Shown here: positions 4,111-60,720 of the stretch, piece after piece
Numbering within the stretch: the stretch's first letter is position 1
Layout: every line of letters begins with the position of its first letter
Assembly (NCBI GenBank): GCA_964016885.1
Contig: OZ024756.1
Coordinates: 29,264,001 to 29,328,000, forward strand
Origin: Eledone cirrhosa
Taxonomy: Eukaryota
Length of the DNA stretch: 64,000 nt
Direction of reading: 5' to 3'
Made by a program: the position numbers and the translations under genes
The notes under the pieces: model-generated
What the model was told of the DNA's origin: nothing
Database searches by the model: none
The model's input: the letters and a program-made list of their open reading frames with translations, nothing else

Positions 4111-4521
4111 ATATGTAGGAGGTGAGTTTTATTGTAGTACAATAAAGCAATGCAGATATCGGATAAGAAGCACTCTACAGTTTGTAGGACTGGAGTATAC
4201 ATAATATAAGATCAAAAGATGGTTAAAGGAGTTCCATGTATTTTATTATGTGCATTTCAAAAACAAACATCATCATGCAATAATATTTGTGTTTTCATCA
4301 GATAAAACAGGAGAACATGATATGAAGGCTAAAAAACACTTGTGGATAGTGGATATGTTGATTTAAAACTGCACTATCCACAAGTGTTTTTTAGCCTTCA
4401 TATCATGTTCTCCTGTTTTATCTGATGAAAACACAAATATTATTGCATGATGATGTTTGTTTTTGAAATGCGCATAATAAAATACATGGAACTCCTTTAA
4501 CCATCTTTTGATCTTATATTA
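4111..4521. mobile_element. Fold-back ribozyme element (Penelope pLTR/retrozyme-like)
   Basis: Inverted arms 4202-4351 and 4372-4521 (150 bp, 1 mismatch), 20-nt loop, one-sided tail 4111-4201, flanked by (CA)n and (TA)n. Confidence 0.75.
4414..4484 (+). ncRNA. Minimal type-I hammerhead ribozyme (mirror copy on - strand at 4239-4309)
   Basis: Stem I tgttttat/ataaaata; CTGATGA 4422-4428; stem II aaacacaaatattat...atgatgatgtttgttttt; GAAA-T-GCGC-A-TA (palindromic loop, AUA cleavage triplet). The mirror copy has a GCAC loop. Confidence 0.8.
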
Positions 4522-5125
4522 AATATATATGTATGTATATATAATATATCATTGTAATACCTACAGTGATATTATCATATACACACACACACACACATAT
4601 ATATATATATATGTATGTATATATAATATATCATTGTAATACCTACAGTGATATTATCATATACACACACACACACACATATATATATATGTATATGTAT
4701 ATATAATATATCATTGTAATACCTACAGTGATATTATCATATACACACACACATATATATATATATGTATGTATATATAATATATCATTGTAATACCTAC
4801 AGTGATATTATCATATACACATACACACACACATATATAGTATGTATATATAATATATCATTGTAATACCTACAGTGATATTATCATATACACACACACA
4901 TATATATATATATATGTATGTATATATAATATATCATTGTAATACCTACAGTGATATTATCATATACACACACACACACATATATATATATATATGTATG
5001 TATATATAATATATCATTGTAATACCTACAGTGATATTATCATATACACACACACATATATATATATATATGTATATATATGTATGATATTAAATAAATG
5101 GAAACTATATTTATAAAACCATATT

Positions 5126-5191
5126 TATTTCGTTATATATATTTCAGGGATATCATATTAACAATATGTTATGCCATCTTCAGACAAAATA
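5126..5191 (-). ncRNA. Minimal type-I hammerhead ribozyme (solo copy, same family as 20380)
   Basis: Minus strand reads tattttgt CTGAAGA tggcataacatattgttaatatgatatccct GAAA T ATAT A TA acgaaata. Confidence 0.72.
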
Positions 5192-5540
5192 CAATATAAA
5201 CAGTCTTATAAATAAATAGATACGACATACCTTTCAATCACCTTGCATTTGGTAGGTTGATTTGGCAGTGATATATGTATGTATATATAATATATCATTG
5301 TAATACCTACAGTGATATTATCATATACACACACACACACACATATATATATATATGTATGTATATATAATATATCATTGTAATACCTACAGTGATATTA
5401 TCATATATATATATAGATAGGAAAAGAGTCAGGACCCCAACGGCTGAACTCCAGCCGCACACTTCCTTCGTTATATATACACATATGAAATATCACTGCA
5501 ATACCTACAGTGATATTATCATATATATATATATATATAT

Positions 5541-5882
5541 TTTTTTTTCATTTCATTTTTTACGTCTGCTTTTTCCCTGCTTGCAAGGGTGGGACGGGAA
5601 CTGATGCTGGCTTGATTTCTACAGCTGGATGCCCTTCCTAACACCAACCTCATTTACAGTGAGTGCTGGGTGCTTTTTTTGCCGTGGCACCTCCACGACC
5701 AGTTTGCAGTGGAATGATAGGGACCTCAGTCCCTATCATCTCATTTCTACAGCTGAGTAAACTGGAGCAATGTGAAATAAAGTGCCTTGCTCAAGGAAAC
5801 AACACATCACCCGGTCTGAGAATTGAACTCACAACCTTTCGATTGCAAGGCCAATGCTCTAACCACTAAGCCATGTGCCTCC
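5541..5882 (-). mobile_element. tRNA-derived SINE family B
   Basis: Nearly identical to 39211-39542. Confidence 0.85.
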
Positions 5883-7084
5883 ATATACATACATAATATA
5901 TATATAATATATCACTGCAATACCTACAGTGATATTATCATATATATATGTATCATATATATATGTACATATCACATAGGACCGATTGATCGACAAGATC
6001 CCAGGGTGGGGTGGACCACATCAAACTGGACCAAGGAAACAGTCTTTCAATTGCTGATACTATCTACCGGTCGCAACGCCTGGCAGAAGGAGCAACATAA
6101 AATAATTGTTTCAACATAAAATAATTGTTTCAACATAAAATAATTGTTTCTAATAATTGTTTCACAAGGCCAGCAATTACCCAGTGCATTACTGGTACTT
6201 TATTTTATCGACCCCGTAAGGATTAAAGGCAATGTTAACCTCGGCGGGATTTGAACTCAGAATGGCAAGGGCCGTAACTCTATGCATCAAAGCATGGCGT
6301 CCGACCCTCTACTGATACTGCCAATCCACCGCCCTAAAGCAACATAAAATAATGTGTCTTGCTCAAGGATACAATGTCTGAGAATTGAACTTGCAACCTC
6401 ACTATTGTGAATCCAACTCTCTAACCACTAAGCCACGTGCCTTCACATGTGTGTGTGTGTGTGTGTGTGTGGTTGATGGCTGAGAGATAGGAGTAGTTAA
6501 TACCAAAATAGAGTTTTAATATTCAATATTATTAAGGCTAAAAAGTGAGTCTTGGTACTCTGGAGTTTTGCCTGTTTATCACAGGGCCACCAGGTGCGGT
6601 AAGCAGCGAGACACTGCATCCTTTAAGGCCTCCATGCTTCCCGAGATTCGCCAACACTACCCCTAATGTTCCCCCTCCATACACACGCACACATGTATAT
6701 CATGACTCATACACTATTCACTTCCCTGACATTTGTGTATTATTCTATGTACTATACATGCACCTTTGACGAGTTGTAGTGCACCTGAGCACTTTACACA
6801 ATAAGCCTTTCATCCTTACGGGGTCTATAAAATAAAGTACCAGTAATGCACTGGGTAATTGCTGGCCTTGTGCCTAAAGTAGAAACAATTATCATTATTA
6901 TTTTAAACTCCAGAGTAACAAGTCTCACTTTTGTTTTCAAGTGTTTTCAAGTCTCGATAGTAGCTATATATAGATATCTAACCAAGTATCTATGTGTCTC
7001 CATACAATAACATGTCTGTCTATCTATCTGTAAAGATATCTATCTATCTATCTACCTACCTACCTACCTATCTATTTATCTGTA

Positions 7085-7620
7085 TATCACCGTGTCCATT
7101 GTCATGATCAAACCGCCACCCTCCTTCAAAAACGAAGGAGAGGCGGTTTTCCTTTGTGTGATAGCTATGGCGAAAGAGGCTGTATGGTGGACAAGGTTGA
7201 AAGGGCTGAGGTCAGACACCTTTCTCTCCGGCCAACAACTGATTCTTTTTTTCAAATACCACTTTGGAAGAAGAGTCAGGATGGAGAGAGAGGTGCTGCA
7301 CCCCACAAGTTTTATGAAAGGTGGGTGAAAGTGGCGAGAATGGCCCGAGTGAATGGGCCTTCTCTCTATATCAGCCTGTAGGTTGAGGAAAAGGAGGAGG
7401 AGAGGAAAGGAGTACAAGCTCTTCGTACTCCTGGAGATGAGGGTTGCACATTTTTTTTCGGGGGTATGTGTTACCCATATAAACTGTCTTCCTCTATTGG
7501 GGAAAATCGACTAACTTTTAAATTCCATCTGTGATAACATTTTACACGTTTTTATTGTATGTAAACTTCCCCCTTTGTATTTGTCCCCTTCTTTTGTGCC
7601 CCTGTGGCTAATAAAGAAAT
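7085..7620 (+). mobile_element. Tx1/L1-clade LINE 3' fragment (3'UTR-like remnants about 9230-9285, 31015-31240, 33140-33375)
   Basis: Frameshifted VIAMAKEAVWWTRLKG...FFKYHFGRRVRMERE...FYERWVKVARM; ends in gtggctaataaagaaat. Confidence 0.65.
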
Positions 7621-7999
7621 ATATCTATTTATCTGTATATCTGTCTGTTTAATCTATCTATCTACATACATACCTGTATATCTGTATGCACATTTAATTT
7701 ATCTATCTGTCTATACACATATCTGTCTGCTTGACTGTCATCCTATAGTTATCTATTCATGTATATTTACCAATGTATCCATCTATGGACAAAAACAAAA
7801 ACAAGAACAACTGCAACAACAACAACAAAGCAGAAATACAAATCCTAGATAGGAATAAACTATCGAGTACTTCTAGAGAACCTTCCGAACATATGAGGAG
7901 GTTTATTTCTCGACTACTCTCACTCTCGACTACTCCTGTACACCTGTTACATATGAAGTTACCTTCTCTGTCAGCCTACCTACAACCCTGTGGTGATGT

Positions 8000-59423: not shown

Positions 59424-59490
59424 TATTTTATCTGATGAGGACGTACTGTTGAAGTTACCTCAGTACCTCTGAAATATGTATAATAAAATA
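59424..59490 (+). ncRNA. Minimal type-I hammerhead ribozyme (solo)
   Basis: tattttat CTGATGA ggacgtactg ttgaagttacct cagtacctct GAAA T ATGT A TA ataaaata. Confidence 0.8.
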
Positions 59491-59773
59491 TACTTGATCA
59501 CATGAATGTCTATTTTTGTTAATATTTTGAATTAATATTAATAACTCCGGAAAACCATAACCTATTGTAAAACTCATTCTTTGATTTATTCATTGAACCT
59601 TGTTTAACCTTTAAATATATATATATATATAACGGAGGAAATGTGGTAAGGAACCAGGTGGACCATAACGCACCAAAGTACTCAATACTTAGGGTAGTAG
59701 AGTCCAGAATTAGCCGTCGAAACGGCTTGAGCTCAGCCGTCGGGGTCCTACTCGTTCCTATATATATATATAT

Positions 59774-59848
59774 GGTTGTCCCCCAAAAATGTATACATAT
59801 TTCAACAGCATTCTAATAAAAGTGTGTATACATTTTTTGGACACCCTC
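59774..59848. mobile_element. Tc1/mariner-like mini-MITE
   Basis: ggttgtcccccaaaaatgtataca ... tgtatacattttttggacaccctc inverted ends within (TA)n. Confidence 0.5.
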
Positions 59849-60240
59849 CATTTATATATATATATATATAAGGTAAAAAGATGAAATCGAAAATGCAACT
59901 GGAGTCTTTTTAGGAATATTTATTTGTTTCCTTTATTAGTTTCACAGTTCTTATGCTTTTCAAAAGTAGAATTCAGATGGAGGGTTTGTGGTCTCTCTCT
60001 CTCTCTCTCACACACTCACTCACTCACTCACTCACTCACTCACTCACTCACTCACTCTCTCTCACTCACTCACTCTCCCTCTATATATACATATATATAT
60101 ATATATATAAAGAGAGAGAGGTAGAACACTGGAAGGTAATATCCGTAGTGGTAGAGCACTCAGCCAGTCCATGGGACGAGTTTGGTAGTGGCAGTAACAA
60201 CAGTTAGTTCACCATACGGAAGAGTATAACCATGACCAGT

Positions 60241-60281
60241 CCGAGCTGAAGATCCGCATAAGGTGAAACAATTGTTCTCGG
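60241..60281 (+). ncRNA. Minimal type-I hammerhead ribozyme with a long outer stem
   Basis: ccgag CTGAAGA tccgcataaggt GAAA C AATT G TT ctcgg; outer pairing agtaacaacagttagttcac (60193-60212) with gtgaactaattgttgttact. Confidence 0.75.
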
Positions 60282-60376
60282 TATCGTGAACTAATTGTTG
60301 TTACTACTTATATATATATATATATATATATATATATATATATATATATATATATATATATATATATATATATATA

Positions 60377-60720
60377 TATTATTATGTAATAAACAACATA
60401 AGGCAATTATTCCATTTACCAGTGGTTTCTTAAAAGCAAAAGGTTTTGCTTTCAATCCTCAGAATGAAAAAATCCTGGTTTGTTTATTGAATTTGGATTT
60501 TAAAATTAGGTTTTTAAAATTAGGTTTTTAAAATCCAAATTCAATAAACAAACCAGGATTTTTTCATTCTGAGGATTGAAAGCAAAACCTTTTGCTTTTA
60601 AGAAACCACTGGTAAATGGAATAATTGCTTTATGTTGTTTATTACATAATAATAATCAAGCTCTGTTGCCTACATAGAGCACTCTTTTTTCCTGGACTTT
60701 TCCGACGGAATTACTTCACA
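60377..60720. mobile_element. Fold-back ribozyme element
   Basis: Arms 60377-60505 and 60526-60654, tail 60655-60720, (TA)n flanks. Confidence 0.75.
60562..60621 (+). ncRNA. Type-I hammerhead ribozyme (mirror on - strand at 60410-60469)
   Basis: tttcatt CTGAGGA ttgaaagcaaa acct tttgcttttaa GAAA CC ACT GG TA aatggaa; 11-bp stem II, GUA triplet. Confidence 0.82.

Follow-up and report, generated by a model that had tools for sequence, protein, structure and literature searches.

We analyzed a 64,000-nucleotide stretch of the Eledone cirrhosa genome (assembly GCA_964016885.1, contig OZ024756.1, positions 29,264,001 to 29,328,000; hereafter the window) that contains five fold-back insertions, each with two inverted arms bearing hammerhead ribozyme cores. 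We give a probability of about 70% to the reading that these are head-to-head ends of Hydra-type Penelope-like elements (PLEs), made anew by copying RNA from two starts that are set by a pair of hairpins, H1 and H2. The fold-back layout is already known, the elements are new members of a known clade, and the fold-backs themselves are ordinary; the remaining interest lies in the conserved paired hairpin and in a polarity rule, through which ideas on how PLE tails and inversions arise can be put to the test.

Fold-back ends and their parent elements

The five insertions share the architecture that an earlier note on this DNA had described, namely (TA)n or (CA)n, an arm, a loop, the inverted arm and a one-sided tail, with arm identities of 149/150, 122/123, 124/128, 157/161 and 128/129 (97–99%) in the order given below. 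Each was assigned to a family (F1 to F5); RT denotes reverse transcriptase, ORF an open reading frame, pLTR the pseudo-long terminal repeat of a PLE, and UTR untranslated region.

4111..4521, − strand: F1 insertion; tail ~4113-4201, tailed arm 4202-4351 (CUGA 4301−), loop, tail-less inverted arm 4372-4521 (CUGA 4422+); the parent is a Hydra PLE of autonomous type (ORF ~800 aa), of which this is the 3′ end.
4172..4196, − strand: hairpin H1 of F1; ACUC / UA bulge / GAGU, then GCU.
20110..20494, − strand: F2 insertion; tail ~20112-20193, tailed arm 20194-20316 (CUGA 20300−), loop, inverted arm 20372-20494 (CUGA 20388+); the loop is upstream element sequence, and a full-length frameshifted copy lies in locus L270.
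20176..20194, − strand: hairpin H1 of F2.
35401..35798, − strand: F3 insertion, an older relative of F2; tail ~35402-35482, arm 35483-35623 (CUGA 35598−), inverted arm 35671-35798 (CUGA 35696+); upstream, decayed RT and GIY-YIG sequence in loci L031 and L033.
35461..35483, − strand: hairpin H1 of F3; no full-length F3 copy was obtained, so H2 was not seen.
49766..50320, + strand: F4 insertion; tail-less inverted arm 49766-49926 (CUGA 49876−), loop, tailed arm 50024-50184 (CUGA 50074+), tail up to 50320; the parent is a 2.9-kb unit that has no ORF, is likely non-autonomous and contains internal 505-bp repeats, and this is its 3′ end.
50187..50246, + strand: hairpin H1 of F4, with a 40-nt loop.
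60377..60720, + strand: F5 insertion; inverted arm 60377-60505 (CUGA 60462−), loop, tailed arm 60526-60654 (CUGA 60569+), tail to 60720; upstream, the whole pLTR-ORF-pLTR unit in locus L136.
60660..60680, + strand: hairpin H1 of F5; GCUC / UA bulge / GAGC, then ACU.

A type-I hammerhead descriptor found 15 cores in the window, compared with a mean of 0.075 and a maximum of 1 in 40 local dinucleotide shuffles. Ten of these are the arm copies, so that each arm does carry a complete core as claimed; the other five (CUGA at 5183−, 41402+, 48059+, 59432+ and 60246+) correspond to the solo hammerheads of the earlier note. Of these, the one at 60241 belongs to a fold-back as its tail-less arm, the tailed partner (~60109-60205) ending short of the ribozyme. 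More tailed ends without an intact core are also present. Helix II is often long and helix III palindromic. Hammerhead families were absent among 150 of the 433 Rfam matches listed for the window, where microsatellite matches to miRNA families dominate, and an inverted-repeat finder run over the whole window returned microsatellites only. The high density of cores extends outward, with 40 in 264 kb (the window plus 200 kb beside it) and 16 in 200 kb of another chromosome; extrapolation from these two regions would give a few hundred thousand cores in the genome. Diversity among the elements is likewise high, although the families do not all differ strongly, since loci 20110 and 35401 and the solo at 5126 are related subfamilies.

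Each of the five loci was searched for in the 3.0-Gb assembly (first-look candidates: F1 618, F2 1512, F3 2714, F4 1069, F5 1141), and per family 40 candidates were scored and the best 30 taken. The tailed end adjoins TA repeats in 136 of the 150 copies, in keeping with the TA targeting proposed earlier. In all families the tailed end is fixed and the 5′ points vary, and many copies are missing the inverted arm. Where that arm is present, its outer end is also fixed relative to the tailed end: 83–92 nt in 18 of 20 inversions for F1, 81–86 nt in 21 of 28 for F2, 86–88 nt in 9 of 11 for F3, 135–143 nt in 11 of 15 for F4, and 63–65 nt in 4 of 17 for F5. Inversions off the fixed outer end run off the locus or are repeat matches, and several "inverted" matches of F5, F2 and F3 fall in microsatellite-rich or repeated sequence; only the 63 loci with arms at the fixed site were used further. 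The inner joints are diverse, with 10 distinct breakpoint pairs in 20 inversions of F1, 27 in 28 of F2, 10 in 11 of F3 and 13 in 15 of F4, and the fold-back "loop" is upstream element sequence held by one arm only. Overlaps of at least 2 nt occur at 33 of the 63 joints, and six F1 copies share one joint, which falls at a palindromic hexamer of the parent element. Many different F1 joints were also present in public short-read contigs (three runs, of unrecorded kind, possibly from the same sample). The fold-backs are 5′-truncated 3′ ends of PLEs in the published "inverted copy plus one-sided tail" layout, and each insertion event likely produced them afresh.

Four of the five families (F1, F2, F3 and F5) lead upstream into RT and GIY-YIG coding sequence and carry the hammerhead in the pLTR, which bears out the suspected link to PLEs. 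The earlier view that no element encodes a protein therefore holds for the stubs and not for the families, and the idea of a non-autonomous system, also at odds with the varying joints, fits only the ORF-less F4. Of 30 RT-anchored F1 loci, 15 have the pLTR and tail directly 5′ of the ORF, and in 12 of these 15 the frame is open for 816–833 codons; tandem copies are spaced at 3.9 kb, and an 821-codon frame carries YRDD and YFG..R. Locus L136 shows the order pLTR-ORF-3′UTR-pLTR for F5, which has frames of 711–718 aa at more than 20 of 150 scored places. The L270 copy of F2 is complete apart from its frameshifts, the L031 and L033 copies of F3 retain a decayed RT and endonuclease, and the RT/GIY-YIG frames of F5, F2 and F3, some of them broken, resemble that of F1. 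In F4, 29 of 30 copies of the 5′ part continue along the 2.9-kb unit, in which PLE proteins had no match better than E = 0.06; the unit has no ORF and is likely non-autonomous. The coding link and the variable joints come close to the outcome that the earlier note had named as its own refutation, that the copies are termini of a catalogued Penelope family.

The Hydra clade is defined by RWK, DKT in place of DKG, a CxCx5C linker, CxxC and CxH near the C-terminus, and the lack of CCHH (Craig et al., 2021, PMC8557442); its members are described with an inverted truncated copy, a one-sided tail, (TA)n targets and hammerheads, and include an octopus element, Hydra-1_Obim. The families here have a single ORF with RT plus a C-terminal GIY-YIG endonuclease, as recognized by motifs (F4 excepted) and as in endonuclease-bearing (EN+) PLEs; partial tandems forming pLTRs, with the inverted 5′-truncated copy and the one-sided tail (L136, L130, L173/L174, L270); a putative type-I hammerhead in the pLTR; and the (TA)n insertion described above. 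Their motifs are RWT, DKT, CNCx5C, CNLC and CLH in F1, RWK, DKT, CSCx5C, CSLC and CPH in F5, and RWR, DKT, CNCx5C, CDLC and CRH in F2. DKG is absent from all three proteins, DKT standing in its place, and their translations also lack the cysteine pair between the two GIY-YIG strands that would indicate CCHH. In contrast to the published Hydra members (<3 kb, tails of 30–40 bp; PMC8557442), the families here are very abundant, include an ORF-less member, have tails of 65–135 bp and, because of long 3′ UTRs, form units of 3.9 kb (F1), 3.8 kb (F5) and ~4 kb (F2); the size below 3 kb is a descriptive rather than a diagnostic trait. Naiad and Chlamys, which have an N-terminal endonuclease and lack a canonical hammerhead, do not fit, the endonuclease here being C-terminal and hammerheads being present; nor do non-LTR retrozymes, short head-to-tail repeats in which every unit bears a hammerhead, given head-to-head arrangement at all five loci and the 2.9-kb F4 unit. 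We consider it nearly certain, from these sequence features, that the elements are Hydra-clade PLEs and that the fold-backs are their 5′-truncated head-to-head 3′ ends. An initial Neptune label was dropped once clade motif definitions were compared.

Two further observations concern the coding loci. L130:6101-7483 (− strand) holds a different PLE-type ORF piece of 461 aa with RT and GIY-YIG, Poseidon-like by eye; 40 scored copies of 849 candidates were all ~100% identical, which marks a very young family. In L136, a second, diverged hammerhead lies at 8560-8690 in the microsatellite-rich 3′ UTR of F5, ~1.1 kb upstream of the pLTR.

The H1/H2 hairpin pair and the polarity of ends

Comparison of the tails of unrelated families revealed a bulged hairpin that occurs twice per element and reads RCUC, upper stem, loop, upper stem, U(U/C/A), GAGY, mostly followed by RCU. 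It consists of a 4-bp RCUC/GAGY basal stem, a 2-nt 3′ bulge (UU, UC or UA), an upper stem of 1–5 bp of changing sequence, and a loop of about 2–60 nt. Both copies sit between the hammerhead (upstream) and the ATG (downstream). H1 opens each tail; H2 lies past the tailed end, was first noticed in read-through copies of F4 and F5, and was then predicted, and found, in F1 and F2. Three more families of the same genome have both hairpins, and the ORF-less F4 retains hammerhead, H1 and H2. The basal pair alternates between A-U and G-C among families of this genome, and when 12 hairpins were folded with their surrounding sequence, 10 had a predicted basal stem at p ≥ 0.5. The background of the hairpin descriptor is 1.5e-4 per base, real elements included.

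With natural read-through copies as rulers, tailed ends stop 2–10 nt before H2 in 118 of 120 cases (F1, F2, F4, F5) and tail-less ends stop 2–10 nt before H1 in 58 of 63; both end sites lie in AU-rich sequence resembling the target. We infer that the tail is the H1-H2 interval, and we lean toward the hairpins being RNA signals that would position priming.

Relatives were sought in metagenomes with an RT alignment, and the best 80 of 259 were kept, of which 78 loci show 41–50% identity; a metagenome search with a single protein query found no relatives, nor were any found in viral contigs. Of the metagenomic relatives, 52 include 120 nt or more upstream of the ORF start; the motif is present in 44 of them, and in same-length controls for these 52 it occurred in 2 (antisense) and 1 (coding sequence). 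Relatives with 200 nt or more of upstream sequence form 31 non-redundant clusters, of which 20 show two separate hairpins and 8 a single one; H1-H2 spacing is 55–83 nt, one doubtful pairing aside, and ACU follows the hairpin in 36 of 40. Upper-stem pairs were counted from both arms inward, and a MAFFT alignment of the H1 copies, with its variable loops out of register, was left unused. At positions 2–3, 30 of 40 cells are paired for H1 (18.9 in shuffles) and 24 of 40 for H2 (15.6), with several pair types, and the observed values were reached by 1 and 0 of 5000 shuffles, respectively. Six published Hydra consensuses were inspected by eye, some at their ends only: Hydra-1_Ajap (sea cucumber) has H1 and H2, Hydra-2_Amil and Hydra-2_Ajap have H1, Hydra-1_Crog has variants of both, and Hydra-1_Obim and Hydra-1_Amil have weaker variants. 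The pair is undescribed in the literature searched, which excluded subscription papers and Repbase reports; in the main text of Craig et al. (PMC8557442) the word "hairpin" does not occur, and "stem" is used for hammerhead descriptors only.

Polarity was scored in 464 kb of unselected DNA (the window with 200 kb of adjoining sequence, plus 200 kb on another chromosome), where all 12 head-to-head hammerhead pairs join one tailed and one tail-less end. Of 15 pairs met incidentally, all 11 classifiable ones were mixed, and the other four belong to families without thresholds, two of them symmetric-ended and lacking the hairpin. Mixed pairs are near-universal; a free choice of start on two independent RNAs would yield them in at most half of cases.

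Separately, loci L018 and L165 contain a hammerhead family with inverted pairs that have symmetric ends (176/176 and 126/126) and no bulged hairpin; it may represent a different PLE clade and could serve as a natural control.

Models for the origin of the inverted copy and tail

We propose that the RT-endonuclease, probably as a dimer, would bind H1 as well as H2 on a single tandem transcript, nicking both strands of the (TA)n target. Each nicked end could then pair with the AU-rich stretch just 5′ of one hairpin and prime one cDNA, and the two cDNAs would grow toward each other, stop early and join via short microhomologies; the second hammerhead would be a by-product of the inverted copy, with no ambisense design. 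In vitro data on a green anole Poseidon PLE agree with several of these steps (Frangieh et al., 2024, PMC11167929): nicking and extension took place on both strands of an AT-rich target, the tail was delimited by two internal RT start sites, RNA lying 3′ of the start was needed, and a dimer was predicted. A fuller version holds that an undescribed, cross-phylum hairpin pair loads an RT dimer on one RNA, fixes one priming site per target strand and so explains both the inversion and the one-sided tail, with hammerhead-H1-H2 as a minimal cassette for mobilizing cargo in trans; we regard its chances as evenly balanced. That the cassette might suffice is suggested because F4, which has no ORF, keeps all three parts.

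Twin priming in L1 elements is a related process, in which one RNA is copied from two target-strand primers and the resulting inversion is joined at microhomologies; in the present elements the two primers would both start close to the 3′ end, hence the duplicated pLTR. Stringent LINEs (long interspersed nuclear elements) recruit their RT through a 3′ RNA stem-loop, whereas the hairpin here lies downstream of the start and outside the copied part. PLE RTs are the sister group of telomerase, and an RNA element that sets the template start would bear on how RNA is read in the PLE/telomerase lineage. If the two-hairpin model is true, moving or breaking H1 or H2 should move or abolish the matching end. 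PLE ends whose ribozyme is gone can also be recognized by the motif, which aids annotation of a very abundant repeat class; a repeat annotation of an octopus gives 31 Penelope-like families with recent activity (PMC13282606).

The same hairpin could instead act in DNA, with the endonuclease recognizing it in tandem cDNA or in the donor and cutting just upstream, so that the ends are cleavage or resolution sites rather than priming sites. Craig et al. credit the tail to endonuclease-mediated resolution (PMC8557442), the Drosophila virilis enzyme required the tail for recognition (as cited in PMC11167929), and the basal RCTC/GAGY is near-invariant. We nevertheless hold this to be unlikely: the variable loops (~2–60 nt), the fixed one-sided bulge and the compensatory upper pairs, including G-U, suit a single-stranded fold; the motif is strand-specific (antisense 2/52); the inserted tailed end lacks H2; and in vitro starts of the related PLE coincide with tail ends (PMC11167929). 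Sequential copying, in which one cDNA primed from H2 stops and folds back or jumps template, the second arm being made later and ending at H1, seems rather improbable. It would account for the palindromes and microhomology at joints (33 of 63 overlapping by at least 2 nt; six F1 copies at one palindromic hexamer), and self-priming on an antisense template has been proposed for rotifer PLEs of the same layout (PMC3846280), but the inverted arm often exceeds the tailed arm in length and includes upstream sequence missing there, so it is not a simple fold-back copy of the first cDNA, and its outer end is fixed at H1 and adjoins TA repeats.

The earlier note had favored a third possibility, an ambisense non-autonomous ribozyme element with a rod-like RNA, self-cleaving in both polarities and mobilized as a unit. 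Intact cores in both arms, the joint common to 6 of 20 F1 inversions, the ORF-less F4 and the PLE derivation of metazoan retrozymes (PMC7229834; bioRxiv 2026.07.22.740005) speak for it. Yet joints mostly differ between copies, the inverted arm is missing from many of them, the joint that recurs in F1 is palindromic in the parent element, and retrozyme-type short tandem arrays are absent at the five loci. With the arms head-to-head, each hammerhead is preceded by an antisense copy, whichever strand is read, and in predicted folds of whole loci all 7 of 7 core bases are paired in 10 of 10 strand/locus cases, at a predicted cost of 19.6–22.2 kcal/mol for freeing the core. Self-cleavage of fold-back read-through RNA is therefore predicted to be blocked in either polarity, contrary to the earlier claim, while isolated arms may be active ribozymes. 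We judge this element very improbable. The chance that the palindromes are assembly artefacts is close to nil: AT-rich palindromes between microsatellites are hard to assemble, but the arms differ at 1–4 positions, the ends are asymmetric and family-specific, inversion joints are present in public short-read contigs (possibly of the same sample), and the same layout is published for other animals (PMC8557442, PMC4209133, PMC3846280).

Several points weigh against Hydra-type ends copied from two hairpin-set starts. Microhomology with TA repeats blurs the end positions, and the basal stem, near-invariant and near-palindromic, is readable as DNA. Several hammerhead families of this genome have no bulged hairpin, it is absent in 3 of the 31 metagenomic clusters, and the pairing drawn for L281 H2 and for L336 looks wrong; the shuffle test takes no account of relatedness, and the 5′ arm was picked for maximal pairing. 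The family loci are the best-scoring 30 of hundreds to thousands, picked with tail-containing queries. Two true tail/tail loci occur among the selected copies (L122; L023 = L028), while such labels for L044 and L065 were spurious, reflecting one cut-off and one interrupted end. As a test of one shared RNA, arm identity within versus between loci was 0.979/0.973, 0.989/0.990, 0.962/0.930, 0.990/0.992 and 0.993/0.988 for the five families. Pfam gave 0 families for 5 of 5 proteins and a PDB sequence search nothing significant, and Hydra membership comes from motifs, with published reference proteins compared by eye. Lastly, the Poseidon element belongs to another clade and its in vitro study reports no start-site difference between strands (PMC11167929), where the model needs one start per strand.

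With respect to known systems, the single RT + GIY-YIG ORF, RWK-like motif, DKT, CxCx5C, CxxC, CxH, pLTR hammerhead, (TA)n target, inverted 5′-truncated copy and tail are all shared with the Hydra clade; the paper that defined this clade names the origin of tandem and inverted PLE insertions and of their one-sided tail as an open task (PMC8557442). Poseidon differs in clade, in starts that lie inside the ORF in an AC-rich stem-loop, in the lack of strand bias and, in the accessible account, in having no repeated conserved hairpin described (PMC11167929). Cervera and de la Peña (2014, PMC4209133) reported dual minimal hammerheads 100–700 bp apart on opposite strands, dispersed solo motifs related to truncated PLEs, a palindromic helix III and high family diversity; the layout, solos, helix III and diversity are the same here, whereas the accessible text of that study contains no end mapping or paired hairpins. 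Metazoan non-LTR retrozymes are 150–450-bp head-to-tail repeats with circular RNA (PMC7229834; bioRxiv 2026.07.22.740005), and Chlamys/MRC1 is a non-autonomous, ORF-less class (PMC8557442), both thought to be mobilized by PLEs. F4 fits this broad class of ORF-less elements bearing hammerheads or pLTRs; in contrast to retrozymes, it is 2.9 kb long and shares the insertion pattern of its autonomous relatives, and its fold-backs are head-to-head.

Other insertions in and beyond the window

The remaining ends in the window include the solo cores and one short fold-back that was absent from the first reading:

5086..5270, − strand: single tail-less end of an F2/F3-related subfamily (CUGA 5183−); fold-backs with an H1 tail in L006 and L210.
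41386..41530, + strand: solo minimal hammerhead of a separate dispersed family (CUGA 41402); bulged hairpin not found.
48041..48245, + strand: single tailed end (CUGA 48059); H1 at 48154-48186.
59416..59615, + strand: single tailed end (CUGA 59432); its family forms tailed/tail-less fold-backs elsewhere (L032), and this copy falls outside the strict hairpin descriptor.
60109..60305, strand unassigned: fold-back with a very short tailed arm (~60109-60205, − strand, variant hairpin by eye) and a tail-less arm with CUGA 60246+.
63775..63975, − strand: the short fold-back plus tail, arms 56/57 identical; H1 at 63823-63846; full hammerhead core not found.

The family of the last insertion also occurs at about 38925-39120, 54523 and 59680. 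The copies at 38925-39120 and 63775-63975 belong to one abundant family of short fold-backs with a tail, with 68 matches among the retrieved loci; no full core was seen in the copies viewed. Hairpin-bearing ends without an intact hammerhead lie 37–83 nt from a microsatellite at 20788-20813, 27007-27056, 54523-54546, 56232-56251, 59680-59703, 60781-60826 and 63166-63189, and relatives of the 27007 and 56232 ends have hammerhead-like cores upstream. Inserts with inverted arms, and without the canonical CUGANGA core or hairpin, occur at 63560-63760 and 29221-29372, the former with a one-sided extension between TA repeats.

At L015:1701-1840 and L024:1700-1830 (sense), an F3 tail joins the hammerhead region of another family, which suggests that copying switched from one PLE RNA to another. 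Other dispersed repeats, SINE-like (short interspersed nuclear element) by eye, form inverted pairs at 38530-39538, 6165-6870, 36882-37356 and 61612-62551; the first of these pairs flanks a PLE-type insert, and nested insertion into TA tracts is common in the window.

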